A DNA stretch of 64,000 nucleotides from Parcubacteria group bacterium GW2011_GWC2_48_17 (GTDB lineage Bacteria; Patescibacteriota; Minisyncoccia; Phycocordibacterales; UBA10002). This document shows positions 394 to 22,407 of the stretch, in pieces. Below the pieces are notes generated by a model. It saw only the letters and a list, made by a program, of their open reading frames with translations, was not told the origin of the DNA and made no database searches. The translations under genes were made by a program, and so were the position numbers. The first letter of the stretch is position 1. Each line of letters starts with the position of its first letter. Location: assembly GCA_001003605.1 (NCBI GenBank), contig LCPL01000001.1:7976-71975 (forward strand), read 5' to 3'.

Positions 394-2985
394 TCAGAAA
401 GTCTCTGGATTCCAGAAATCATCTACTCTGTCGACTCCTTTGTCTGCTTTGGAACCCAAGAGCAAGGGCATGGGAGGATCCTTCTGTTTTGGTGCTGTCC
501 CTACGCTTGGGGACGGTACAACAGAGTCAACAGAGACAGTCTTTTTCCCGCCCTTTCTGATGTAGATCCTTTTTTGTTTTTGGGCCTCCCCGCGTTTAAT
601 GTGCATCCCCGTAACCGCGAGGTTAGTTTTTAATTCGTTTATTTTCTTCCCGAGTGCATTTGCCGTCTTTGGAAAATCAGGCTCCCGCTCAGGCTTGATG
701 TGTAGACCCTCTGCTACTTCAATAAGTGCATTCCGCAATTCTGTGGGCGTTCCTTCCCAATCTTCTCTGCCATCCATAAAGGTACGGAGGAGGACCGCTG
801 TTAGATTTTCAGCTAAGACCTCATCGTTCTGACTCGCGATGTTACTTCCATAGGCACTCAGAAACTCTTCCTTGGTGTATCCGAGTGCCTCCGCAATAGC
901 AGCGCCCCATCGCGTGAAGTCAGCCATTCGAGGCAGAGACGCTAATTCAATTGCAGGCTCTATCTGCATCGCCTTTTGCAGTACAGTGAAGATGCCCCCC
1001 AGTATGCTAGGCTGGTCCTTCTCGAATTCAGCGAGCAGGGCTTTCTCAGATTTTCTGTCTTCCTCACTGATTCGCTCCAATTCAAGCAGGATGCCTCGTT
1101 CCAGAATATCAGGTCTCGTCGCCACCTGATTGATACCGTTTAGGATTAGGACACGGCGGAAAGCGTATATGATGTCGTCATCATCAGTAAAGAGTTCACG
1201 CTTCGAGAAGCCATCCCCCGTAACCGCTTTACAAAGCGCATCGGAATCTCGGCCAGAAATACGAGATATATTGTCAAATACAATGCACCAGTGGTGGTCG
1301 AATATCTGAACCAACTCATTTTGGTCTCTCGGAAATCCTATCGTTTCGACTTCGGAGGGGTCTCCAATCTTCTTTAATAATCGGCAAAAGAATGTCTTCG
1401 ATGCTCCTTGAGCTCCATAAACAATCAGAATAGGATGAGGAATATTTGGAATAAAAGACGCGACTAACCACACCAGCAACAGAAGCCGATGCTTTCTATC
1501 AGCAACATTTAGATATTTGAGTAGAAGGGTTATATCTCCATCTTGAACGGGTTGACATTGCGCCTTTTGGTGGGAATAACGTCGAAAAAGAATAGGCGGA
1601 TTTGCGACAATCTCCCAGCTCGCCTTTGTAATTTTTACTGCACGCCATTCCGTGTCGGCGAGGTCATACCATATCGCGCCCTCGTGTTCCGTCAGTCGAT
1701 TCCACAGTTTGATTAAGGGACCGTCAAAATATGCCTTTCCTTCAAGGACCGTCAAGGCAGTTTTGAGAGCTTCGGTGTTCGGTGCTTTATGTCGAAGTTG
1801 CCAAAAGCGTCGGGCCAACCACCGCCGACACATTTTTGAACGACACGACCATACTTCCCGATGCGACCCCACAGTGAGCTGAAGGAAAGGATATTTATAC
1901 TGATTGTGGAAGAGGACAACTTTAGTCTCAGGGTCTTCAAGCACCATACGCACGATTACGTCGCTTTGAGATTCATGCGGTACTGCGACCTTCGTACCTT
2001 CTTCCGACTGTTTGCTTCCATATCCCTTATTTGCCAACTCTCTCGCAGCGCTTTTGAAGTCAGCCTTATGATTCAAGATGGCATACGCCGAGAACTTGGT
2101 ATAGCTTCTATCTGGCTCAAAGGGTGTACTCGATGAAAAGACATGAAGCAGACCGTTGCCATTGTAGTTTTCGGTCGCCGATATTCCGCCTTCTATCTTG
2201 CCAGGCCGCTTCCAGTATCTTTTCTCCCCGCATTGCCGTTCAATCTTCCAGCCAAGAGGTGCCAGTATCTCTTCCCAAGTGGCCCTAGTGTTGTAGTCAT
2301 CTCCAGGCCGATTAGAGTCAGGAAGTTGCGGCTTAGGATTGAATATCTTTTGTTCCTCTACTATCTCGTTAAGTACACGGGCAGTGTCCCAGAGTGATTT
2401 TCGTTGTTCTGGAGTAATTTCAGGTATATGCTCGAGGGACCCATTCAAGTGCTCATAGCCCTCTGTAGGCGGCTCTACAATGAATCCTCCTTCACCTCTC
2501 GTTTCTATGACTGCTTTTTTCTCCCCGCTTTCATCGAGACATCTCGCTAACGGGGTATTTCTCCCAATCTCCTTACTTCGATAGAGAAGGTGATATCCGT
2601 TGTTGATAGTTTTGGATAGAGGGAGGGTTTTTAAAAGCTCTAGGGCTTCCGCTGGCAGCAGTGATTTCCACGCTTCAAAAAACCCTTTCCTGACTTTCTC
2701 GTCAAAGTCTATGACCTCAAGATTCCCACTCACTCTTCCGCAGACAATTCCCCAACGCTTCTTGTTGGTCCAACTTGAGATCTCCGACTCATTAGGTAGT
2801 CGGCTTTGGTATTGCTTCCACCCATCACCATGATGCTTTTCACCGTCTACTAGCGGGAGCAAGCAGAGCCCGCAGGAGTTGATTAACTTCCGAACATACT
2901 GAATTATTTTAGGTTGTTCATCCATGACTTTCTCTATATTTAATTTTCGCGAGTAAGTCGAAGTACCTGACGAGTGTATTCGCAA
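394..2985 (-). CDS. Phage/plasmid primase-helicase. It has a Prim-Pol-like N-terminal region and a D5/P4-type P-loop NTPase C-terminal domain. An alternative start lies at Met21 (~2925).
   Basis: 863-aa ORF. Walker A motif GAQGASKT. Overall architecture matches P4-alpha/D5-type replicative primase-helicases. It sits next to a serine recombinase. Confidence 0.6.
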   Translation of the reverse strand: MRIHSSGTSTYSRKLNIEKVMDEQPKIIQYVRKLINSCGLCLLPLVDGEKHHGDGWKQYQSRLPNESEISSWTNKKRWGIVCGRVSGNLEVIDFDEKVRKGFFEAWKSLLPAEALELLKTLPLSKTINNGYHLLYRSKEIGRNTPLARCLDESGEKKAVIETRGEGGFIVEPPTEGYEHLNGSLEHIPEITPEQRKSLWDTARVLNEIVEEQKIFNPKPQLPDSNRPGDDYNTRATWEEILAPLGWKIERQCGEKRYWKRPGKIEGGISATENYNGNGLLHVFSSSTPFEPDRSYTKFSAYAILNHKADFKSAARELANKGYGSKQSEEGTKVAVPHESQSDVIVRMVLEDPETKVVLFHNQYKYPFLQLTVGSHREVWSCRSKMCRRWLARRFWQLRHKAPNTEALKTALTVLEGKAYFDGPLIKLWNRLTEHEGAIWYDLADTEWRAVKITKASWEIVANPPILFRRYSHQKAQCQPVQDGDITLLLKYLNVADRKHRLLLLVWLVASFIPNIPHPILIVYGAQGASKTFFCRLLKKIGDPSEVETIGFPRDQNELVQIFDHHWCIVFDNISRISGRDSDALCKAVTGDGFSKRELFTDDDDIIYAFRRVLILNGINQVATRPDILERGILLELERISEEDRKSEKALLAEFEKDQPSILGGIFTVLQKAMQIEPAIELASLPRMADFTRWGAAIAEALGYTKEEFLSAYGSNIASQNDEVLAENLTAVLLRTFMDGREDWEGTPTELRNALIEVAEGLHIKPEREPDFPKTANALGKKINELKTNLAVTGMHIKRGEAQKQKRIYIRKGGKKTVSVDSVVPSPSVGTAPKQKDPPMPLLLGSKADKGVDRVDDFWNPETF

Positions 2986-4042: not shown

Positions 4043-6073
4043 CTAAGAACTAGAGATAATCTGCATCAGCCACTCTATAGATGCCTCTCCCTGCTTTTTC
4101 TCGACACGGTTCATCTCTCGGCCGTGCACGAGGGCGTTTCGATATTCCTTTATGTTAAGGAAATGTTTTTGCACCTCGCCTGTAGAGCCGAAGTCCTCCT
4201 CGAATATCTCCCAGTTCTTTCCGATGATGCCGTTGTAGTCCATGATGTCACAGAAGCCGAGCCGATCAATATTCGTTAATACGCTCTCTTTCTCGTATGG
4301 ATGTCGCTTCATTCTCTCCTCTATTTTTTTCGCGACTCGATCTTGAATGTCTGAAGGTACATGTGTCCAGTAATCTGGACCGAAATCCAACGCTAGCTTG
4401 TCGTTGAGATACATACGAGTCAGTTTTTCGAGCTCGTCCACCACTTTCGTTGGTGCATCTTGCATCTTTGTTTCTAAAGCCGCATGGTCTCCTATGACAC
4501 GTTCAATATGACTGAAAATCAAATTGGCACGGTCTTGAATAAAACGATCATAATCATCGGTCCAGATTGCCGCGTCCTCCTCTGAGGGAATAAGGTGCGA
4601 CTGCATAATTTCCTGAAATACAGGGTTGCCTGCTCTATACTCACTCAAATAGTCCGAGGGACCGCGCTTGCTTATCTCCCGATTCAATTCTCCAGGTATG
4701 AACGCGAAATTCATCAGCAAGTGCCGATGCTTGACCTCCTTGCTTCGTAAAAACGCTTTCGGAAATATGTGATGCTTTTCACTATGGTTGTAGTCGGAGC
4801 ACAATTGATCATCTAAGGTGATGGGTGTACCTGTCCTAAAATGACGTGGCTGTTGCAACGAGAGCAAACACAAAATCGCGCTCTTAACCGCCGAACGTGT
4901 ATAGTTCATCAAACGGGCAATATCTGTCGCCTGTATGTTAATAGGAAAGTTCATTTGGGGAGGGCTACTGTGCATTGCTGGGGTAAAATAATCCACCGCA
5001 TCAAGACCCATCACAGTCGGAGTGGAAGCACCATATCGTTCCGAAAAAGCGGAGCGCCAAAACCAATCTTGAATGAATTTCGCCTGTGTTACATTTAAAG
5101 ACCGAGAAGGTACTTTAGCGTACATATAAGCCACCAGAGCGATCATGGAAGGGTACGGAATGAAGTCATAGATGCGAACCCCGAGGTGGCTCCGCAGAAA
5201 ATCAATCGCAGCGCGGATAGCATCACTCACCTCCTGCCAGTGCTGTTTTATTTCCTGATTAGTCAGTTGTATTTGGTACGACTTGGTGCAACCGTTTTTT
5301 ACTACCAATGCCAAAGCTTGTGCCACTACTTCTTCGGCAATCCTGCCGAAGCCCGATTCCTCCAGAGTGGAATTGAGTTCCTTTGTCTTTTCTTTCAGGT
5401 CGAAGTCCTCACTCCACGTATTTGCGACTACTAAATCAAACAGGCCGAGCCGCTTCCCTCCTTGATTGATTCGTTCAAAAATCGTAATCGCATCGTCCAA
5501 GTGCTTGCCCTTTACCTCAACGATGGACATCGGATAGTTATTAAGCGCAGTCTTGCACTTCTTAAACACCCGCCGTTTCTCGGGAGTCAGCGAGTCATAT
5601 ATCTCATCTTCGCCTTCTTGGGCGAAAAAGCGCCAGAGCGAAATTGTCTTCTGTTTGTCCTCCTTTCGCTTCACGCTCTCGAATTTTTCAGTTTCCAAAT
5701 CGAAGCAGATCTTACGGTAGTCTTTGTCCCTTCCATTTTTTGAAGGTAGGGAAAGTCCCTTTGCGGTTACATAAAGAGAGGTGATTCTCTGTTGCCCATC
5801 CAGTATCATTTTTATCTGGTCATAGTTCTCGGGAGTGGGTAATTTCAGTTCTGGTATATCGCGGTAGTGGTCCCGATATTCCTGCGGGGTAATCCAGTAG
5901 AAGAAGCTTCCTATAGGGAACCCTTTATAGATGCTGTCGAAGAGCTTGGCAACCCGCGTCGCCTCCCAAACATAATCACGCTGAAAACGCGGGATTCGCA
6001 ATACGCCTCGTCCCATTTCTGACATAACATCATTTAATGTGCGCGGACGCACCTCTATGGGAGACTCATCCAT
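4043..6073 (-). CDS. GmrSD-like DUF262/DUF1524 nuclease, a putative type IV (modification-dependent) restriction enzyme. It carries an extra ~170-aa C-terminal region.
   Basis: N-terminal IPRFQRDYVWE and DGQQRITSL are the DUF262 (ParB-like) signatures. The middle HSEKHHIFPKAFL is a DUF1524 His-Me-finger-like motif. The C-terminal tail contains RNALVHG, an Rx4HG-like motif. Confidence 0.65.
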   Translation of the reverse strand: MDESPIEVRPRTLNDVMSEMGRGVLRIPRFQRDYVWEATRVAKLFDSIYKGFPIGSFFYWITPQEYRDHYRDIPELKLPTPENYDQIKMILDGQQRITSLYVTAKGLSLPSKNGRDKDYRKICFDLETEKFESVKRKEDKQKTISLWRFFAQEGEDEIYDSLTPEKRRVFKKCKTALNNYPMSIVEVKGKHLDDAITIFERINQGGKRLGLFDLVVANTWSEDFDLKEKTKELNSTLEESGFGRIAEEVVAQALALVVKNGCTKSYQIQLTNQEIKQHWQEVSDAIRAAIDFLRSHLGVRIYDFIPYPSMIALVAYMYAKVPSRSLNVTQAKFIQDWFWRSAFSERYGASTPTVMGLDAVDYFTPAMHSSPPQMNFPINIQATDIARLMNYTRSAVKSAILCLLSLQQPRHFRTGTPITLDDQLCSDYNHSEKHHIFPKAFLRSKEVKHRHLLMNFAFIPGELNREISKRGPSDYLSEYRAGNPVFQEIMQSHLIPSEEDAAIWTDDYDRFIQDRANLIFSHIERVIGDHAALETKMQDAPTKVVDELEKLTRMYLNDKLALDFGPDYWTHVPSDIQDRVAKKIEERMKRHPYEKESVLTNIDRLGFCDIMDYNGIIGKNWEIFEEDFGSTGEVQKHFLNIKEYRNALVHGREMNRVEKKQGEASIEWLMQIISSS

Positions 6074-7640: not shown

Positions 7641-8379
7641 AAATGTAAGGCATGTTTAATAACCGCGTCCGACTAAGTGCGGAAGAAGTTTGTTTTATTA
7701 AATTACTTCCTCACTAATTTAGTTTTATTTTAGGAGTGGGTATGGGAGTTGTCTTTCAAAAAGTACCGACTTGGATTGGGGTGGTGGGTATGGGGAGTGC
7801 GTACGGTTTTTCTTCGGTTTCAAAGATGAACCGCTCACAAAAAATTTCTAAAAAATCTAGAACTTCTTGCGTACTTCCCAAAATCAGAACAGAGGTATAT
7901 TATTCACTTGATAACTGAATATTCCGCCCGCAAGGGCATAGCCTAAACCGCTCGATTCATTTCAAAGCGGCACGGCTCCTAATCCCATGGAAGATTCTGA
8001 ACCCCACGTTCAGCGCTCTTCCATGGGTATATCTCCGAAAGGAGGTATGGAGCCGCAAGGCTCTGCTGGCGTGGGGCTCAGTGTTTATCCCTCTCCACGC
8101 CAGCCGTTATCGGCTGTTTTTTGTTTGAGTAGTTCATTGACGGCAGCAGGTTTCGAGAAGTAACGCAATGTTTCTGCAGGAATTTGCGTCCCACTCTCGT
8201 TGTGCGGAAGTGCTTCAAAAACACTTTTTATATGGTCGCCGTTTGCTGAGAAATCGGCAAAATCATCATAGGCACAAACAAAAAAACAAACACAGGTAGC
8301 CACTTTCTGGCTTCTACTTTTTAAAGGGGCGAATGCCCGCCTGCTGCCGTCAGTGAATTATTAAATTATTAAAAGATTT

Positions 8380-12009: not shown

Positions 12010-13485
12010 ATGGCGACACTACAATTTAAGGGGAAGTCGGCGGTATGGAATCACCATCTCTCGGTGCCGTATCACACGCTTGAGGAGAATAAGAAGCAGT
12101 CCCTTAAAGGCAAGGACAGCGACGAGAACTTAATCATTGAAGGCGATAATCTTCTCGCGCTCAAAGCACTCCTGCCGAAATATCAGGGGCGGGTGAAGTG
12201 TATCTATATTGACCCGCCGTACAACACGGGTAACGAGAACTGGGTCTATAACGATAATGTGAACAGCCCGACGATGCAGGAGTGGGTAGGCAAAGCCGTT
12301 GCCAAAGACGATCTCACACGGCACGACAAGTGGCTGTGCATGATGACTCCTCGCTTGAAACTCCTGAAGGAACTACTTCGGGAGGATGGGGGGATTTTTA
12401 TTAGCATCGATTACAACGAGGAGTCGCGGTTACGATTGCTGATGGACGAGATTTTCGATGAGGGGAACTATCGAAATACATTTGTCGTGTCGCGTGTAAA
12501 GAAGAACATCCAAGAGACAGAAAAAGTAAAAGCTGTAAACTTCGGGTACAACTCCGTTGTTTTCTATGCACGGACAGATTCTTGCCTTATCAATCCGCCA
12601 AAGCGGCCACATAGAAAAGAAGAGCGGTGGCATGCCTTTGATGCACCTGGCATACGCTCAACGATGGAATTTGAGATTTTCGGTGCAAAGCCTCCTCAAG
12701 GGAGACACTGGATGTATTCGAAGGATCTCGTAGATAAAATGATTAAGGAAGGAACGGTGAGGAAAAACCCAAAGACGGGAAGTATTCAGTATTTACTTGC
12801 CGCTTCTGATTTCACCCTACTTGATACAAACTGGACCGACATCCAGGAATCAGATTCCCAGTGGGACTTCCTGAACGGAGAGAAAAATGTAGAACTCATT
12901 AAGCGAATTATTAAGATGCTTGACGAACCAGGCGCTATAATTCTCGACTCATTTGCTGGCTCAGGCACTACCGCTCATGCCGTTCTTGATCTTAATCGGG
13001 GAGGCGGTGACAGAAAGTTTATTCTCGTAGAAATGGAAAGTTACGCCAATGAAAAAACGGCGGGACGGGTCAGAAAAGTAATAAAGGATAGTGCCGACAA
13101 ATCTGGCTTCACCTACTACACCCTCGGTCCAGCGATAGACGCGGAGAATCTTTTGAGCGGTAAGCTCCCGACTTACAAGGAATTCGCCAAGTATGTCTAC
13201 TACCTCGCCACGGGCAAGAATCACCCGAACGAAGCGAAGATAAAGGAGAGCGACTCACTCGTAGGAAAGGCAGAGCACGAATCAATCTATCTTCTCTACG
13301 AGAAAGACAAGAAGAAGCTCAAGACGCTCGCTATAACCCTTGATTGGGCGCAGAAAGTCCACGAAAAGAACTCGGGCAGGAAGATTGTCTATGCTCCTGC
13401 CTGTTACCTCGACGACGAGGCATTGGAGCAGTACAACATCAAGTTTGTCAGTATTCCCTATAATCTCTTTGAGCGAAATGTGTAA
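12010..13485 (+). CDS. mod: Type III restriction-modification system methyltransferase (Mod), beta-class N6-adenine/N4-cytosine MTase
   Basis: DPPYN (motif IV) precedes DSFAGSGTT (motif I). LIIEGDNLLALKAL is the typical Mod N-terminus. A Res gene follows 5 nt downstream. Confidence 0.8.
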   Translation: MATLQFKGKSAVWNHHLSVPYHTLEENKKQSLKGKDSDENLIIEGDNLLALKALLPKYQGRVKCIYIDPPYNTGNENWVYNDNVNSPTMQEWVGKAVAKDDLTRHDKWLCMMTPRLKLLKELLREDGGIFISIDYNEESRLRLLMDEIFDEGNYRNTFVVSRVKKNIQETEKVKAVNFGYNSVVFYARTDSCLINPPKRPHRKEERWHAFDAPGIRSTMEFEIFGAKPPQGRHWMYSKDLVDKMIKEGTVRKNPKTGSIQYLLAASDFTLLDTNWTDIQESDSQWDFLNGEKNVELIKRIIKMLDEPGAIILDSFAGSGTTAHAVLDLNRGGGDRKFILVEMESYANEKTAGRVRKVIKDSADKSGFTYYTLGPAIDAENLLSGKLPTYKEFAKYVYYLATGKNHPNEAKIKESDSLVGKAEHESIYLLYEKDKKKLKTLAITLDWAQKVHEKNSGRKIVYAPACYLDDEALEQYNIKFVSIPYNLFERNV

Positions 13486-13490
13486 CCTCT

Positions 13491-15989
13491 ATGCTGAAGG
13501 ACTATCAAAAAAAGGTGGTGAAGGAGATAGAACGCTTCTTTAACCACTTGGACAGCGCACGACAGAAGTTTGAGGTTATGGGGGCCGATATGCAGTCAAC
13601 TGTCCAGTCGCTTGGCGGCTTTCTCGCACTCACTAACGAATACAAGGGGTATGTTGACCGCCCCCAGACAGGCATCGGCGCTTCCTATCCTCGCGTCTGC
13701 ATCAAGATGCCAACAGGTGGCGGAAAAACCCTAATTGCAATTGAGACCATTCGCGCGTATCAAAACCTCTTCGCCAAGAGCAAGACGGGGCTGGTAGTAT
13801 GGATAACACACCGCGACCAGATATATCGGCAGACCATAGAGAATCTACAGAATAAAGGGCATGTCTATCGGCAGTTGCTGGACCAAGCAAGCGGCAATCG
13901 GACGCTTATCATCGAAAAGGGCCAGGCGCTACGCAAACAGGATGTGGACGAGAACCTCGTCGTGCTTATGCTGATGATTCAGTCCGCGAGAAAGGACACC
14001 AACAAGATATTTGAGGACAGTGGCGGCTATACCGATTTCTTTCCGCCCGAAAACCGCTATGACCTCCACAAAGAGTTGCTTGGTGTCATTCCGAATCTTG
14101 ATAGGACAGTTGATACTGATACGCTCTATGAGCGTGCGCAGATTAAGACCAGTTTGGGAAATGTGATTCGTTCGTTGAACCCGCTCGTTATCATGGATGA
14201 GCTCCACACGATGTTCACCGATACGGCCAAAGAGACACTCGATGGGCTGAATCCCTCGGTGGTTATCGGACTATCGGCCACTCCACGGCAAGGTATGAAT
14301 ATTCTCTCTGAAGTGTCGGGACGGGATCTCAAGGTAGCGGACATGATTAAACTTGATATGCATCTCATTCCGCCTGTACAGAAAGATGACTGGCGTTCTA
14401 TGCTCATAGCCGTCAAGGCAAAGCGCGATGCGCTTGAGAACAGCGCGACTAAACTTGAGCGCAATAAAGGCGTATATATTCGCCCCATCGCGCTGATACA
14501 GGTTGAACGGACGGGTAAGGACCAGCGCGGACAGAAACATTTCGTACATAGTGAAGATGTTCGAGAGTTTCTCACTGCGTCTGGTGTCCCTAAACATACC
14601 ATCGCAGTGAAATCCAGTTCTCTTGATGAGATTAAACAGCAGAAACTTCTTTCCAAGGAGAGCGAGATTCGATATATCATCACGAAAGAGGCACTCAAGG
14701 AGGGGTGGGACTGTTCATTCGCGTATATCCTCGGAGTGATACCGAATGCAAAGAGCGACTCTTCAATGACTCAACTTGTGGGGCGCGTTCTGCGACAGCC
14801 CTATGCGAAAAAGACGGGAGTAGCCGAGCTTGACGAGAGCTATGTATTTTTCAGGAGCGGTAATGTAAAAGAGGTACTTGAAAAGATACAGGCGGGGTTT
14901 GATGATGAAGGACTCGGCGATCTGAAACTGGGTATAGCGGTACGCGACCACAGTGGTAAGACGCTTAACCCGACGCGAAATGTTGGCATCAGGAAAGAGA
15001 TTAAAGAGCAGTACCCCGAATCGCTCTTTCTTCCTATGTGGCTTGTGAAGCAGGGCAAGGGACTGTACCGCAAGTTTTCGTATGATACAGATATACGCCC
15101 ACGCCTTTCGTGGGATGTTCAGAAGGAGACAAAGCAGTGGCTCAAGGAGCTTATCCCGACGATTGGAAAGCCGCGGAGGGGACCGAAGGAGAGAATAATC
15201 ACTCTGAATAAAGAGGCGAGAATAGGGGGATCGGTTAAGGACAGAGGGTCCGTGAAGTTTGATGAACTCTATATCACTCGGCGATTCTCGGAAACCATTG
15301 AAAATGCGTTTATAGCTCATGAGATAGCCGAGGGTATTGTCTCCAAGCTCAGTGTCCAATTTTCAGCAGAGGTGCTCGATACGGATTCGGGATATATTGC
15401 TCGGGAGATTGAGCGGCACTTATTGGAGTTTAGGAAGAAACAGGAGCAAGGCATTTTTGAGAACCTCGTAAAGAGCGATTCGCTTGAACTCGTTGTCTCT
15501 GATGATGCCGAATCAGGATTCTCTATGCCCGACAAAGATAGCGTTGCAGGGAATATCCCTCCTGTCTATACGCTTAATCTGTACGAAGCGATTGAGCCCG
15601 ATTCTATGAATACGCTTGAGCAGGAAGTGGCGGACATCATTGAGGAGAGCCATAATGTGGTCTGGTGGGCTCGGAATAAGCCACAGAAGGGGTGGTATGC
15701 GGTCCAGGGGTGGCAGAGGGACAAGATACGGCCTGACTTTGTTATAGCCCGTAAGAACGATAAAGGAGAGCTTGAATTTGTTTATGTGGTAGAGAGTAAG
15801 GGTGAGCACCTTGCGGGAAATGAGGATACGAAATACAAGACTGCCGTATTCGAGAAGATGAACACGATGCGCAGGAGTGTGCAGAAAACACAGGTGCGGA
15901 CGACGACCGTAAAGCTCAATGACCAGTTTAAGTTTGAGGTGATTCCCGAAGGAAAGGAGGAAATTCAGTTAAAGAAGGAACTCAATTAG
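13491..15989 (+). CDS. res: Type III restriction enzyme Res subunit (SF2 helicase plus C-terminal PD-(D/E)xK nuclease)
   Basis: Walker A MPTGGGKT, motif II VIMDELH, motif III GLSATP. C-terminal PDFVIARK...VVESKGEH is the nuclease motif. Confidence 0.8.
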   Translation: MLKDYQKKVVKEIERFFNHLDSARQKFEVMGADMQSTVQSLGGFLALTNEYKGYVDRPQTGIGASYPRVCIKMPTGGGKTLIAIETIRAYQNLFAKSKTGLVVWITHRDQIYRQTIENLQNKGHVYRQLLDQASGNRTLIIEKGQALRKQDVDENLVVLMLMIQSARKDTNKIFEDSGGYTDFFPPENRYDLHKELLGVIPNLDRTVDTDTLYERAQIKTSLGNVIRSLNPLVIMDELHTMFTDTAKETLDGLNPSVVIGLSATPRQGMNILSEVSGRDLKVADMIKLDMHLIPPVQKDDWRSMLIAVKAKRDALENSATKLERNKGVYIRPIALIQVERTGKDQRGQKHFVHSEDVREFLTASGVPKHTIAVKSSSLDEIKQQKLLSKESEIRYIITKEALKEGWDCSFAYILGVIPNAKSDSSMTQLVGRVLRQPYAKKTGVAELDESYVFFRSGNVKEVLEKIQAGFDDEGLGDLKLGIAVRDHSGKTLNPTRNVGIRKEIKEQYPESLFLPMWLVKQGKGLYRKFSYDTDIRPRLSWDVQKETKQWLKELIPTIGKPRRGPKERIITLNKEARIGGSVKDRGSVKFDELYITRRFSETIENAFIAHEIAEGIVSKLSVQFSAEVLDTDSGYIAREIERHLLEFRKKQEQGIFENLVKSDSLELVVSDDAESGFSMPDKDSVAGNIPPVYTLNLYEAIEPDSMNTLEQEVADIIEESHNVVWWARNKPQKGWYAVQGWQRDKIRPDFVIARKNDKGELEFVYVVESKGEHLAGNEDTKYKTAVFEKMNTMRRSVQKTQVRTTTVKLNDQFKFEVIPEGKEEIQLKKELN

Positions 15990-16004
15990 CATATCGTCGG
16001 GCCA

Positions 16005-16850
16005 ATGAACAAATGTAAAGATTTAATAGTCAGACTGGGGAAAGCATTCTCCAGAGTTCCTATTGTCTACCACAACTGGAGATGCAGACACCACAGATGT
16101 GTTCGATGTAACCTCCCCTTTTTAGTAAAGGGAGGGGACCACTATCGCATTGATGCGGGCTACTTTTTTCTTGGGAAAAACTTCGAAAGGAACTGCGAGC
16201 GTGCTCAGCTAATAAATCGTAGAGACAGTTCTGTAGATATGTGCGAATTGAGTGATGCTCACACCCTTCTTGTTGGTATTATCGGGAGCATGCTTGAGGA
16301 ACATAACGGGAGGCGGGTACCTGTCGAAGATGAAAATATAAGGCGTAAGTTTGTTCTGACGGCTGCCTTTGTTCAGGGAATATTTCTGTGCGAACAAAGC
16401 ATTTTGCGGAGCATGTATCTTCAGGCAGGAGCCTTAATAAGACAGGAATTTGAAACCCTAGTTTTGCTGAATGAGATTAAGGCGGGCAGGCGAAAGGATG
16501 GGAAGGTAGGAAACGCAAAGCATGCGCCATGGAAGAGCAGCCGTCACTATGGAGAACTCAGTGCGTTTGCGCATCTGTCTAATCACCAAATTCTTGATTC
16601 GATAATCGGATACAACACTACATGGGGAGACTTTGCGGCGACAACTCCTCGATATCAAAAGGAGAATGCTAAAAGAATTTACTGTTGGCACATTTCCCTA
16701 GTTCTAGGAATTGTGGAAGAGCTTGCTGCTCTATATGTTGAAATGTACGCCTATAAACCTAGTGAGCGAGAAACAGATGCTAAGAATATTGCATTCAGCA
16801 TCTTGGTAAAATACAAGGTCTTCAAAGAGCCACGTGATAAGAGTAGATGA
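16005..16850 (+). CDS. Hypothetical protein. Start uncertain; a possible alternative start is at 16239.
   Basis: 281-aa ORF immediately downstream of res. No motif recognised. Confidence 0.3.
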   Translation: MNKCKDLIVRLGKAFSRVPIVYHNWRCRHHRCVRCNLPFLVKGGDHYRIDAGYFFLGKNFERNCERAQLINRRDSSVDMCELSDAHTLLVGIIGSMLEEHNGRRVPVEDENIRRKFVLTAAFVQGIFLCEQSILRSMYLQAGALIRQEFETLVLLNEIKAGRRKDGKVGNAKHAPWKSSRHYGELSAFAHLSNHQILDSIIGYNTTWGDFAATTPRYQKENAKRIYCWHISLVLGIVEELAALYVEMYAYKPSERETDAKNIAFSILVKYKVFKEPRDKSR

Positions 16851-16894
16851 AGTAGATCACTGTATCTGGGTTTTCTTGGTATACTTGGCAGACT

Positions 16895-17815
16895 ATGCCA
16901 CCGAGTCTAAACAAGAATTCACCACTGATGCGTTTGATTGAGGGAATTATCTCCTCTTTCAGCCGCCTCCTTCGGTCAAGAAGTAAGGCGCAAACTGTAA
17001 TTGCGCCCTCAAGAGGTCCCTTACCTCATTTGGAGAAGCCGACAGTAGAACCCTCTCCCATTGGACCCGTTATTCAAGAGACTGTAATGGCGCCTGTAGT
17101 GCAGGAGATTCCTAAGGTGGAATCGTCTTCAGCAGGTTTTTTGCGGTGTCCGATAAAGATTGAAGGTCAGGCACTGACACCCTTTACAGTTCGCATCAGT
17201 GCTATCCTTGATCACTCGGGTACAGCCATTGACCCGACCAGCGATAAGAAGTGGGGAAGAAGCGCGAAGGATCAAAAGGTGAAAGCTTTCAATGGAGAAG
17301 TTGGAGAGGGTCCACAATGCCCTCAAGAGCCGTGTGGTTACTCGATGAGGGATTCCGATGAATTTTTCAAGAACAGGGAGATTAATTATGTAGGAGTTTT
17401 ATCCGATGGCGGGAAGTGTACTCTCCAATATGACGGGCATGCGGGTTATGATTTTCCATATCCTGTCCTCACTGCAGTTGTTGCGCCTGCCAGTGGCGAG
17501 CTGTACAAAGCCGCTCAAGGAACCGATTCAATTTACAGCGCACACTGGGGTAAGGACCATTCTTTCTACATAAAGCACGATAACGGTTTCGTAACATGGT
17601 TTCGACACTGTGAGAAGCTGATAGATAGTATAGAAGCAATCATCGGCTCGGACTTTACGAAGTCCTATCGCGTAGAAGGTGGAGCCTCTGTTGCCTACAG
17701 TGGCAATTTTGAGAATGGAAAATCAGGAGGAACCCCCGCGCATCTGCATTTTGAAGTGCGGGATAAGGATTGGAAAATCGTGGACCCTTACCAGACCAAA
17801 TTGTGGAGGGATTAA
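16895..17815 (+). CDS. M23 family (LytM-type) metallopeptidase
   Basis: C-terminal GHAGYDF...(HxxxD) and GGTPAHLHFEV (HxH) are M23 zinc-ligand motifs. Confidence 0.6.
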   Translation: MPPSLNKNSPLMRLIEGIISSFSRLLRSRSKAQTVIAPSRGPLPHLEKPTVEPSPIGPVIQETVMAPVVQEIPKVESSSAGFLRCPIKIEGQALTPFTVRISAILDHSGTAIDPTSDKKWGRSAKDQKVKAFNGEVGEGPQCPQEPCGYSMRDSDEFFKNREINYVGVLSDGGKCTLQYDGHAGYDFPYPVLTAVVAPASGELYKAAQGTDSIYSAHWGKDHSFYIKHDNGFVTWFRHCEKLIDSIEAIIGSDFTKSYRVEGGASVAYSGNFENGKSGGTPAHLHFEVRDKDWKIVDPYQTKLWRD

Positions 17816-17825
17816 GGAGAACACC

Positions 17826-18638
17826 ATGTCCAGCATTTCTGCATCTTATAGCGGCCCTCGAGAAATCAAGTACCTATTTGTTGACGGTGGCTGTTTTCGC
17901 CAGACGCTTGAAACATTGTCGAAACGATATTTCGGCGTTCCAATAGATATTGATTACCAAAAACTTGCGGGAGAGTTCACGAAGGTTTTTTACTATGATG
18001 CACTTCCTGTGAAGGAGGAGGAAGAAGTAGACGCCGCATACGAATTACGAATCAGGACACAAGATGGGCTACTGAATCATATTCGCTCTTTCGATAAATA
18101 TCATGTCTATGAGGGCGATGCTCGCCGCCGTCCCAAGCGGGGTCTGGAGCAAAAAAAGGTGGATGTGATGATTGCGGTGGATATGCTGACGCACTCCGTG
18201 CGTCGCAACATGCACAAAGCGACTCTGCTCACGGGAGATCTTGATTTTAAGCCGCTTATTGACGCATTAGTTCAGGAGGGTATGTTTGTCACTCTCTGGT
18301 ATCCCAAGGAGGCGACGAATCCAGAACTAATAACCGCGGCGGATGGCCGTAGGGTATTTGACATCCGCTCAGCATACGAAAATGCAACTGATGACTTTCG
18401 AAACCGATTTCGTCTCCCGTTTGCTTCATCTGGTCCTAAAGGTGTAGGGAAAGCAAAATTGGAACAAACATGGTGGGACAAGACGAGAGGCCCCATTGAA
18501 CTCTATCGAGATGATGATGGTTATCTTGTGGTCTTTGTTGAGGGGGTAAACCCAGGGTATTATCTTCATTTTCGGCATCACGGTATGGATTTACTCAAGA
18601 TGTATATGCGTGAATACTACGACATCTCGATGCCCTAA
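17826..18638 (+). CDS. NYN-domain (PIN-like) putative ribonuclease with an extra C-terminal domain
   Basis: KYLFVDGGCF...KKVDVMIAVDML...ATLLTGDLDFKPLI matches the NYN/LabA-like pattern (VDG.N......GVDV.iA.D.......v.lvSGDsDF.Plv). The start was moved to Met 17826 to avoid overlap. Confidence 0.5.
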   Translation: MSSISASYSGPREIKYLFVDGGCFRQTLETLSKRYFGVPIDIDYQKLAGEFTKVFYYDALPVKEEEEVDAAYELRIRTQDGLLNHIRSFDKYHVYEGDARRRPKRGLEQKKVDVMIAVDMLTHSVRRNMHKATLLTGDLDFKPLIDALVQEGMFVTLWYPKEATNPELITAADGRRVFDIRSAYENATDDFRNRFRLPFASSGPKGVGKAKLEQTWWDKTRGPIELYRDDDGYLVVFVEGVNPGYYLHFRHHGMDLLKMYMREYYDISMP

Positions 18639-18971: not shown

Positions 18972-19112
18972 TAGGACTTACGCACTTTATCATCTTTCGG
19001 TGTCATTCCACTGAAAAAGGGAATCCATGTTATGCAGTATAGCTCTGGATTCCCGCCTCTGCGGGAATGATGAGGAGAAAATGCGAGAGCAAGCTAAAGT
19101 GCGTAAGTCCTA
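18972..19112. mobile_element. MITE-like element, copy A, with perfect 18-nt terminal inverted repeats TAGGACTTACGCACTTTA
   Basis: taggacttacgcacttta at 18972-18989 and its exact reverse complement at 19095-19112. The interior carries the widespread gtcattcc...gcgggaat palindromic-repeat core. Confidence 0.55.
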
Positions 19113-22351: not shown

Positions 22352-22385
22352 TCCCCATCAGCCCATTATTTAGCATTTGCTCACG
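22352..22385. repeat. Perfect 16+16 palindrome TAGCATTTGCTCACGG|CCGTGAGCAAATGCTA (family copy 1). Likely a bidirectional terminator or REP-like element between convergent genes.
   Basis: Exact inverted repeat in the sequence. The same TAGCA..CTCACGGCCGTGAG..TGCTA architecture recurs at ~42827, ~49172 and ~49812. Confidence 0.5.
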
Positions 22386-22407
22386 GCCGTGAGCAAATGC
22401 TAAATCT

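Follow-up and report, generated by a model that had tools for sequence, protein, structure and literature searches.

A closely packed five-gene block in a Patescibacteria genome as a probable mosaic of accessory modules, with a recurrent pair of an undescribed protein and an M23 peptidase

Five genes packed on one strand of the genome of Parcubacteria group bacterium GW2011_GWC2_48_17, namely mod and res of a Type III restriction-modification (RM) system and the genes for a 281-aa protein (unk281), an M23 peptidase and a NYN-domain protein, very probably represent independent accessory conflict modules rather than a single system. The apparent block would resolve into three unrelated modules: mod with res, unk281 with M23, and NYN. 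Taken together with a functional link between unk281 and M23, the mosaic reading is held with less assurance, and is still the one we favour. The window analyzed is a stretch of 64,000 nucleotides of contig LCPL01000001.1 of this very small groundwater organism.

The initial annotation had proposed a defence module linking the RM genes with the three genes that follow. When the five proteins were compared by tblastn with all fetched loci, this combination was found only in copies of the same genome. The trio did not hold together either: apart from own-genome copies, NYN was found with unk281 or M23 at no other fetched locus. A Type III RM system next to unk281, M23 or NYN was likewise not found elsewhere in the fetched loci.

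Organization of the region

The features of the region are reported in Table 1. All five ORFs initially described are present on the forward strand at the coordinates then given, with the exception of the NYN start. They are separated, in order, by 5 (from the end of mod to the start of res), 15, 44 and 10 nt, and the Shine-Dalgarno sequence of the NYN gene, AAGGAG at 17814-17819, overlaps the stop codon of M23. Because of this tight spacing the five genes may be co-transcribed, and a local functional link is thus possible. Promoter and terminator scans produced matches not above shuffled expectation.

The complete Type III RM system, together with a GmrSD/BrxU-like gene and a Prim-Pol gene located upstream of mod and res, marks the stretch as accessory and defence-rich. 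The product of the GmrSD/BrxU-like gene matches the PADLOC models PDC-M55C (2.8e-54) and HEC-05 (7.5e-44), and bears out the defence-flavoured neighbourhood suspected at first reading. No tRNA genes were found as an island boundary, no convincing direct repeats flank the island, and no GC shift was found over 8-20 kb.

Table 1. Features of the region, with their positions in the window and the matches that identify them
Feature	Position	Strand	Match or remark
Mod, Type III RM methyltransferase, 491 aa	12010..13485	+	PF01555, PADLOC MTase_III
Res, Type III RM restriction subunit, 832 aa	13491..15989	+	PF04851 ResIII, PADLOC REase_III
unk281, 281-aa all-helical protein, undescribed family	16005..16850	+	recurrent M23 partner
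M23 (LytM/zoocin-type) zinc endopeptidase, 306 aa	16895..17815	+	PF01551
Stand-alone NYN (LabA/MARF1-like) nuclease-domain protein, 270 aa	17826..18638	+	PF01936
GmrSD/BrxU-like Type IV restriction enzyme	4043..6073	-	PF03235 GmrSD_N 6e-32
Prim-Pol domain protein, 863 aa, mobile-element-type replication gene	394..2985	-	PF09250 1.6e-09

The mod and res genes

The initial assignment of mod and res to a canonical Type III RM system agrees with strong matches to Pfam and to the PADLOC Type III models. Mod matches N6_N4_Mtase with an E-value of 2.9e-28 and MTase_III with one of 3.2e-115, and its motif IV (DPPYN, at about residue 68) lies ahead of motif I (FAGSGTT, at about residue 314). Res matches ResIII at 1.2e-16 and REase_III at 1.7e-130, the latter over residues 54-792, and a PD-ExK-like motif ('PDFVI...VVESKGE') can be read by eye in its translated C-terminus. 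On these matches, the two genes form a complete Type III RM system, which would methylate the cell's own DNA and cut unmethylated invading DNA. No simple repeats of the phase-variation type were found in mod.

Systems of the EcoP15I/EcoP1I type share with this one the order of the genes, mod then res, a Mod subunit of the beta class of N6/N4 methyltransferases, in which DPPY precedes FxGxG, and a Res subunit that joins an SF2 helicase to a C-terminal PD-ExK-like nuclease motif. The window genes differ from them in that both subunits are short.

The NYN gene

The ORF listed for NYN, 17679-18638, ends correctly; its start, a GTG located within the M23 gene, had to be moved to the ATG at 17826, which yields a protein identical to the deposited one. 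The protein matches PF01936 with an E-value of 9.4e-12 and shows the NYN fold and its conserved acidic active-site residues. The NYN domain first recognized was thus confirmed, whereas the C-terminal domain, originally estimated at about 150 aa, measures about 80 aa; it is a family-specific beta+helix domain and has neither a Pfam match nor a PDB sequence match.

In order to describe the genomic neighbourhood of the family, 42 full-length loci were fetched, 41 of which contained a callable copy. Clustering of the neighbours revealed none conserved in the 41 loci, sharing being confined to close relatives. The family is large and patchily spread, with about 45-50% identity across CPR, Bradyrhizobium, Nostoc, Chloroflexota and Bacteroidota; six relatives were found on viral contigs, and another copy is carried by a Nostoc plasmid. 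TIR, AbiTii, Type I RM, PifA, PDC-S11, PDC-S54 and MADS proteins are among the neighbours, in line with the earlier remark that NYN/PIN-like nucleases act as effectors in several anti-phage systems: defence genes are often close to family members elsewhere.

The gene may accordingly be pictured as a separately acquired single-gene module, whose product, an RNase-type, metal-dependent nuclease equipped with a C-terminal domain of its own, is plausibly a toxin or a defence effector. Its classification as a defence or toxin gene is tentative, and its anti-phage activity putative. The alternative is that NYN is a housekeeping or regulatory LabA-like protein, either RNA-binding or an RNase, with no part in defence or toxicity. 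The best structural match, the LabA-like protein VPA0982, would suit this role, as would the many housekeeping neighbours found elsewhere, such as a purD-type GARS and a Clp protease, and the fact that HEC-09, the one NYN defence candidate tested, gave no protection. The patchy distribution across phyla at such levels of identity, the absence of synteny, the plasmid and viral copies and the defence genes among the neighbours speak against it, and make it a doubtful account of the gene.

The NYN/LabA-like nucleases, HEC-09 and MARF1 among them, share with the window protein the NYN fold, the acidic active-site residues and an occasional embedding among defence genes. In HEC-09, however, an HTH-like N-terminal domain is followed by a C-terminal NYN domain, whereas here NYN is N-terminal and the beta+helix domain follows. 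Identification of the protein as HEC-09, or as a PADLOC 'NYN' candidate, was rejected because of this different domain order and because PADLOC yielded nothing beyond weak, incomplete matches (1.4e-5 and 6.7e-5) limited to the NYN core.

Recurrence of the unk281-M23 pair

Among the close homologues of unk281, 25 in all, an M23 gene adjoins unk281 in 5 of 11 distinct contexts, in both gene orders and with three M23 subtypes. In one locus (L102) M23 precedes unk281, the two proteins being 41% (E 4e-69) and 57% identical, respectively, to those of the window. In another context (L108/L109) unk281 is followed, after a 4-nt gap, by an M23 with 49% identity, and the pair is located between the atp operon (ATP synthase) and infB. 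The same order, with a 19-nt gap, is found in L107, where the leader of M23 is kept and the catalytic core belongs to a different M23 subtype: relative to L108, unk281 is 73% identical and the leaders 48% identical, while the cores cannot be aligned. Finally, in L015/L099, an M23 carrying a PG_binding_1 domain lies directly upstream of unk281, on the same strand.

The remaining six contexts contain unk281 without M23: L007/L104 (Smithella-type), L010/L011 (Ferrovum), the L012 type, L106, L110 and L111. Conversely, the three loci fetched by means of the M23 protein all lacked an unk281 relative, also when searched with the superfamily HMM, and the genes following M23 in L017 and L018 (188 and 189 aa) are unrelated and reveal no hidden shared partner. 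When an M23 HMM was run over the 1.54 Mb of fetched DNA, only one M23 was found that had been neither searched for nor located beside unk281. The pair is recurrent, a point that the initial annotation had missed, yet not obligate, and a functional link of unk281 to M23 is likely. Conservation of the genes in a non-defence context, which had been named as evidence against a defence module, was found for unk281 with M23, at the atp operon/infB site of L108, and not for NYN.

As to the biochemical roles and the direction of the relationship, we infer a two-gene cassette recurring in CPR bacteria. M23, a zinc endopeptidase that appears catalytically intact from its sequence, would cleave peptidoglycan peptide links, and its modular N-terminal leader would stand in for a Sec signal. 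As the cognate partner, unk281 would most likely shield the producer from the hydrolase or control M23, either by inhibiting the hydrolase as an immunity-type protein or by acting enzymatically on the wall precursors of the producer, in the manner of Zif and Lif. That unk281 is specifically an immunity or protection factor is a weaker proposal, which we regard as on the unlikely side.

The M23 peptidase

The call of a LytM-type M23 peptidase proved correct. The Peptidase_M23 match (2.4e-09) scores 37.7 bits against a gathering cut-off of 28.7 and spans residues 181-297, and the zinc and catalytic motifs, H182-A-G-Y-D186 and H283-L-H285, show no variation among 16 family members. An amphipathic N-terminal leader, a Pro-rich linker and an extended catalytic core make up the protein. 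All homologues provided with a taxon name, out of 67 collected, are Patescibacteria; judged on these, the family appears confined to CPR bacteria. The best PDB sequence match of the M23 profile is zoocin A (1.5e-10).

Neither a signal peptide nor a transmembrane segment could be recognized in M23 or in unk281, which counts against the favoured reading; the best N-terminal 12-mer of M23 has a hydropathy of 1.32, compared to 2.0-3.1 in neighbouring secreted or membrane proteins. Cell-wall-targeting domains, regarded at the outset as typical of a housekeeping endopeptidase, are present in relatives, PG_binding_1 in P0200 and SH3_3 in P0203; the window protein has no Pfam domain beyond Peptidase_M23, and thus no cell-wall-binding domain.

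These relatives could be taken to indicate that M23 is an ordinary CPR cell-wall endopeptidase of growth or division, with unk281 either a non-essential regulator or a neighbour without any relation to it. Such a role would agree with the occurrence of the named members in several CPR lineages, with one copy located directly after a dcw-type cluster (mraZ, transpeptidase, Mur ligase), and with a weak NCBIfam similarity to MepM and DipM. The contexts of the family, however, are variable and often look mobile, with an SNF2 helicase, a ParB-methylase and recombinases nearby (L017, L107); the leader is retained while the catalytic core is swapped; no Sec signal is found, although clear ones occur in neighbouring genes; and the adjacency to unk281 recurs in both gene orders and across three M23 subtypes. 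A housekeeping role of M23 is accordingly considered improbable.

The unk281 family

In agreement with its first description as an unknown, profile searches with unk281 gave no match in Pfam, NCBIfam, PHROGs or PADLOC, and sequence-profile searches against PDB, with narrow and wide alignments alike, gave none either. The protein belongs to a superfamily of 373 cluster representatives (clustered at 50% identity), for which matches in Pfam, NCBIfam, PHROGs, PADLOC and PDB are similarly absent. In a Pfam scan of unk281 and 149 superfamily members, three members were found fused to DUF2314/Imm34 and two carried a SEC-C motif, with no other domain match; no sequence match was found between unk281 and the Imm families described in Pfam (Imm1-74, SUKH and others). 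Imm34, the other name of DUF2314, denotes an immunity domain that typically occurs in fusion with further domains of this kind (PMC3482391).

The structure predicted by AF2 is all alpha, with a pLDDT of 79. Residues Y138, A141, Q147, E150, P169, Y182 and H190 are nearly invariant, with a Q-E-x-E motif among the conserved positions, and the invariant polar residues resemble those of an enzyme more than those of a passive binder. The N-terminal helices of the CPR unk281 proteins resemble the M23 leaders, a likeness too loose to serve as evidence.

If unk281 sensed infection, or were a HEPN-like nuclease, it could form with M23 an abortive-infection or defence pair, in which M23 would lyse the infected cell from within. 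HEPN identity was not supported: the Rx4-6H motif is missing, no conserved Arg being found 4-6 residues before H190, the scores against the HEPN fold are no better than those against generic helical bundles, and Foldseek gave no match in this comparison. We consider an abortive-infection pair quite improbable. Scans of viral contigs revealed relatives of neither unk281 nor the M23 family, which speaks against a phage lysis cassette.

Distant relatives of unk281 on proteobacterial plasmids are preceded by a gene for a DUF4238 or HTH protein, or are found close to genes of plasmid transfer; these other partners fit a broader role in conflict systems. A broader proposal can be formulated, which we put forward as speculative and rather unlikely as a whole: unk281 would found an undescribed superfamily, whose CPR members are protection or control factors for leader-bearing, Sec-independent M23 bacteriolysins, wielded by episymbiotic CPR bacteria against the walls of hosts or rivals, the orphans in Smithella, Ferrovum and proteobacterial plasmids being acquired resistance genes.

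Comparison with bacteriolysins and polymorphic toxins

The pairs zoocin A/Zif and lysostaphin/Lif offer the closest parallel to the preferred reading of unk281 and M23 as linked partners. Protection of the zoocin A producer is due to Zif, a cytoplasmically acting factor, and both Zif and Lif work inside the cell on peptidoglycan precursors (PMC8538875). As in these pairs, the hydrolase gene adjoins that of its partner, here in the contexts counted above; zoocin A is the best solved sequence relative of the window M23, and unk281 is a small, cytoplasmic-looking partner. The differences are that Zif and Lif are FemABX transferases, whereas unk281 is all-helical and matches no Pfam or NCBIfam family; that the window M23, unlike zoocin A and lysostaphin, lacks both a Sec signal and a target-recognition domain; and that the unk281-M23 association is not obligate, the immunity role of unk281 being putative and suggested by analogy.

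Polymorphic toxin cassettes (Zhang et al. 2012), including T6SS M23 effectors, show further similarities. The N-terminal module of M23 is conserved and its C-terminal hydrolase core exchangeable, as seen in L107 versus L108; a partner gene is adjacent, and orphan copies of the partner are found in other phyla; relatives of unk281 are fused to Imm34/DUF2314. In contrast to polymorphic toxins, M23 shows no link to a trafficking domain or a secretion system of any known kind, unk281 matches no Pfam Imm family, and a single partner family accompanies different M23 cores.

The pairing of unk281 with M23 provides a first functional handle on an unannotated superfamily of several hundred clusters. 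Few CPR bacteria (Patescibacteria) have been cultured, and they mostly live attached to other cells. To our knowledge, little is understood of the means by which they breach or remodel walls while sparing themselves. A mobile M23 that lacks a Sec signal, has an exchangeable core and is repeatedly partnered by unk281 is a testable candidate for the interaction of CPR bacteria with cell walls.

Close packing and common function

That all five genes, or the downstream three, form a single RM-linked anti-phage system, with NYN and M23 as effectors and unk281 as sensor or adaptor, is very unlikely: the shared strand, the gaps of 5-44 nt, the Shine-Dalgarno sequence overlapping the M23 stop codon, the GmrSD gene nearby and the defence genes close to NYN relatives all favour it, but the failure of the genes to co-occur goes most of the way to refuting it, the combination being found nowhere else in the fetched loci, NYN having no conserved partner in 41 loci, and the M23 family and unk281 occurring without RM or NYN. 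Tight packing is, moreover, usual in small CPR genomes, and genes packed in one orientation beside RM genes should not, where the genome is compact, be annotated on that ground as a defence operon. Besides copies of the own genome, the only combination of the five proteins found by tblastn in the fetched loci was that of unk281 with M23 in L102.

Organization of the region

The best reading of the region is that of three independent modules, namely a Type III restriction-modification (RM) system (mod and res), the adjoining genes for unk281, a 281-aa product, and an M23 peptidase, and a single NYN gene. The second of these is a new, recurrent CPR gene pair, composed of an M23 hydrolase bearing an N-terminal amphipathic leader and a member of an undescribed, enzyme-like helical family.

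Features of the region and of the loci compared. Positions are those of the window, unless preceded by a locus number; L-numbers denote loci fetched from other genomes, PDC and HEC names are PADLOC defence-candidate models.
Feature	Position	Strand	Remarks
Prim-Pol protein	394-2985	-	863 aa; left of the RM system
Regulator gene			among the left-hand genes, with the Prim-Pol and GmrSD/BrxU-like genes
GmrSD/BrxU-like Type IV restriction enzyme	4043-6073	-	GmrSD_N 6e-32; PADLOC PDC-M55C 2.8e-54, HEC-05 7.5e-44
LOOT RNA (Rfam RF03000)	7940-8064	+	80.2 bits vs gathering score 46.4; full model covered
mod	12010-13485	+	PF01555 2.9e-28; PADLOC MTase_III 3.2e-115; DPPY before FAGSGTT
res	13491-15989	+	ResIII 1.2e-16; PADLOC REase_III 1.7e-130 over residues 54-792
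unk281	16005-16850	+	281 aa; no library match
M23	16895-17815	+	above Pfam threshold; HxxxD and HxH motifs kept
NYN	17826-18638	+	true start ATG 17826; AAGGAG Shine-Dalgarno overlapping the M23 stop codon
Window pair			unk281 then M23, 44 nt; M23 of the CPR core family
L102 pair			M23 then unk281; M23 41% identical to window M23 (E 4e-69), unk281 57% identical
L108/L109 pair			unk281 then M23, 4 nt; M23 49% identical; between ATP synthase operon and infB/rbfA
L107 pair			unk281 then M23, 19 nt; different catalytic subtype, same leader; beside ParB-methylase and recombinase
L015/L016/L099/L103 pair			M23 upstream, same strand; M23 with C-terminal PG_binding_1 domain
M23 genes compared	L107:6835-7551, L108:6829-7725		both downstream of unk281; leader plus linker 48% identical

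All five ORFs of the initial annotation were found on the plus strand at the coordinates assigned there, the one correction being the start of NYN. The description of mod and res as canonical Type III RM agrees with family models and motif order, and a C-terminal PD...ExK-like motif is readable in the Res translation. In such systems Mod methylates its own sites, while unmodified DNA is cut by Res and Mod jointly, once sites have communicated in an ATP-dependent manner; by family membership, the mod and res genes are a Type III RM system of predicted activity. Profile searches of unk281 in four libraries (Pfam, NCBIfam, PHROGs and PADLOC) gave no match. The C-terminal part of the NYN protein, previously put at about 150 aa of unknown type, measures about 80 aa.

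The unk281, M23 and NYN proteins are identical to UV20_C0014G0015, G0016 and G0017 of Candidatus Magasanikbacteria bacterium GW2011_GWA2_42_32. This places the window among CPR/Patescibacteria contigs. Deposited entries of all three proteins (window 16005-18638) bear three taxon labels: Magasanikbacteria GW2011_GWA2_42_32, Taylorbacteria DEF00_05155-65 and Parcubacteria UY29.

The NYN gene

A genome-wide scan produced 42 full-length NYN family loci, with a callable copy in 41, from Alphaproteobacteria, Cyanobacteria, Chloroflexota, Bacteroidota, Ignavibacteriota and others. All-against-all clustering of the ORFs in the 41 loci revealed no neighbouring gene family common beyond closely related genera. 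The 127 genes located within two positions of family members include TIR_2, two AbiTii and three DUF4145 genes, Type I RM subunits, PifA, PDC-S11, PDC-S54, MADS proteins, a KAP NTPase and, likewise, ordinary metabolic genes. A Nostoc plasmid carries one relative, and viral or prophage contigs (IMG/VR, L093-L098) carry six, which are 27-42% identical and in several cases near contig ends; the scans of viral contigs gave no relatives of unk281 or of the M23 family. Neighbours and carriers together bear the stamp of a mobile single-gene module with a tendency to insert into variable or defence-related regions, but are not proof of defence.

The window gene would act as an RNase-type module on its own. 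The proposal of a defence effector is in line with the defence genes found near relatives, but HEC-09, the sole NYN candidate tested for defence, gave no protection; its architecture differs from that of the window protein. A toxin or defence effector is a tentative assignment, less likely than not, and a housekeeping role, to be considered in view of the metabolic neighbours, is rated slightly lower.

The unk281-M23 pair

Eleven distinct contexts of close unk281 homologues were sampled, the window included, and in 5 of them an M23 gene is the direct same-strand neighbour; of the trio originally suggested, these two genes recur together, while the three do not. Across the whole 1.54 Mb of DNA fetched, an M23 HMM built here identified just one M23 that was neither a search object nor adjoining unk281, so that chance adjacency is of the order of 1% per locus. 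Both gene orders occur, and the M23 genes are of three subtypes, which indicates at least three independent junctions, and argues for a functional link, rather than for one ancestral arrangement; we regard such a link as quite probable. The association is asymmetric and non-obligate: unk281 lacks M23 in 6/11 contexts (Smithella-type L007/L104, Ferrovum, L012 type, L106, L110 and L111), and all three contexts reached via the M23 protein itself lack unk281.

The genes ahead of an M23 family member in L017:138-6981 encode a ParB-N6/N4 methylase, an SNF2 helicase of 1236 aa and a DUF2779 protein; a serine recombinase gene is close by. The combination of ParB-methylase and recombinase is shared with the L107 pair, which suggests a common CPR mobile element.

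All taxon-named sequences among the 67 M23 homologues come from CPR (WS5, Woesebacteria, Kaiserbacteria, Wolfebacteria and Paceibacterota). At its N terminus the protein has an amphipathic helix (about 20 residues, type LEKILNALxxFLxxLFSK), which a Pro/Thr-rich linker, whose length varies, joins to a conserved core. In this core, about 220 residues long, an extension (FLxCPI...DHSGTAIDP...AKDQKVKAFNGE) precedes the canonical M23 fold. Neither a Sec signal nor a transmembrane anchor was detected by hydropathy scan, the leader scoring 1.32 vs 2.0-3.1 for clear signal peptides of neighbouring genes. Peptidoglycan is the predicted substrate, because two relatives carry PG_binding_1 or SH3_3 in the leader's place; the cell-wall-targeting domains that would mark a housekeeping endopeptidase are thus found in these relatives, while the window protein has the leader in that position. 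The best solved relative of the family profile is zoocin A (1.5e-10). Between L107 and L108, unk281 is 73% identical and the M23 leaders 48%, whereas the catalytic cores are unalignable, a pattern read as domain swapping behind a conserved leader and resembling polymorphic effectors, with their conserved N-terminal module and exchangeable C-terminal core.

We propose that M23 may be a bacteriolysin-like endopeptidase, delivered by a non-Sec route, and that unk281 would be its cognate protection or control factor. Protection specifically is a rather doubtful choice; a direct inhibitor or chaperone of M23 is possible. The known precedent in monoderms is a cytoplasmic factor that, like Zif and Lif (PMC8538875), modifies the cross-bridges of the producer itself: an enzyme-like, cytoplasmic unk281 would fit the same logic, but is not a FemABX protein. 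The pair likewise shares the logic of bacteriolysin/immunity and polymorphic effector cassettes, differing in partner family and secretion signal. A housekeeping M23 hydrolase with unk281 as an incidental neighbour, to be weighed against the repeated junctions, is unlikely. An abortive-infection pair is less likely still. Through the unk281-M23 pair, CPR cell-wall attack or self-protection, as well as a superfamily lacking annotation, become open to experiment.

The unk281 superfamily

Close homologues of unk281 numbered 25, in a search that did not return the identical entry, though present in the collection; an exhaustive profile search yielded 373 cluster representatives, most of which are stand-alone proteins 235-250 aa long. 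Residues Y138, A141, Q147, E150, P169, Y182 and H190 are near-invariant (128-149 superfamily members), and E130, E157 and H229 are also common; the pattern suggests an active site or a site for metal binding, more than a surface for passive binding. No Pfam match to the shared region was obtained for 149 members, in which the fused domains were DUF2314 (3), SEC-C motif (2) and glyoxalase (1). DUF2314 is the Imm34 of Zhang et al. 2012 (PMC3482391), an immunity domain habitually fused to other immunity domains.

Distant members reside on conjugative plasmids. In R. rhizogenes pArA4 (L114:4941-6684) and A. fabrum pAtl-11a (L117:2733-4477) the relative starts 1-2 nt after a DUF4238 gene, and DUF4238 conferred resistance to T7 in a screen from the literature. 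The relative follows a small HTH gene in Methylocystis, adjoins a SEC-C protein in Shinella, and lies among ssb, radC, H-NS and DUF6878 genes on Ponticoccus plasmid p-SCP2 (L115:3881-4618); neighbours of this kind typify the part of a conjugative plasmid that is transferred early. The superfamily is tied to mobile elements and conflict systems generally, the M23 link being confined to the CPR branch. On pArA4, a DUF1837 and DEAD-helicase (Hachiman-like) pair and an integrase are also located near the unk281 relative.

Linkage to the RM system and genomic surroundings

Neither a Type III RM nor an NYN gene was present in the 11 unk281 contexts. In the three M23-first contexts unk281, NYN and Type III RM were all absent near M23, and the unk281 superfamily HMM detected nothing. 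When the five window proteins were compared by tblastn with every fetched locus, they were combined only in other assemblies of the same organism, plus unk281 and M23 in L102. The linked module of RM and three further genes, proposed by the initial annotation, found no counterpart in these checks: a defence islet with a linked trio is not upheld by the sampled sequences, the RM system is an ordinary one, and one integrated defence system of all five genes is highly improbable.

The LOOT RNA occupies the gap separating the leftward from the rightward gene block, and is followed by several unannotatable genes, whose products look secreted or membrane-bound. With the Type IV enzyme and Prim-Pol upstream of the RM genes, there is a hint that a mobile or defence region of larger size extends to the left edge of the window. 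Right of NYN, an 860-nt gap is followed by a secreted protein on the opposite strand, an ECF-type sigma factor and, farther, gyrA. Island-edge marks (tRNA, flanking repeats, GC shift) were sought around the gene block and not found; a fair description is that of a defence-rich accessory stretch, without demonstrated island limits.

Between 36000 and 45000, where no rRNA and no other Rfam family was found, GC blocks of 0.53-0.56, vs about 0.46 elsewhere, alternate with low-GC kilobases. The non-coding gap after NYN contains a perfect 18-nt inverted repeat (18972-18989 / 19095-19112), its arms 105 nt apart, and a perfect 38-nt palindrome is located between converging genes at 22368-22405.
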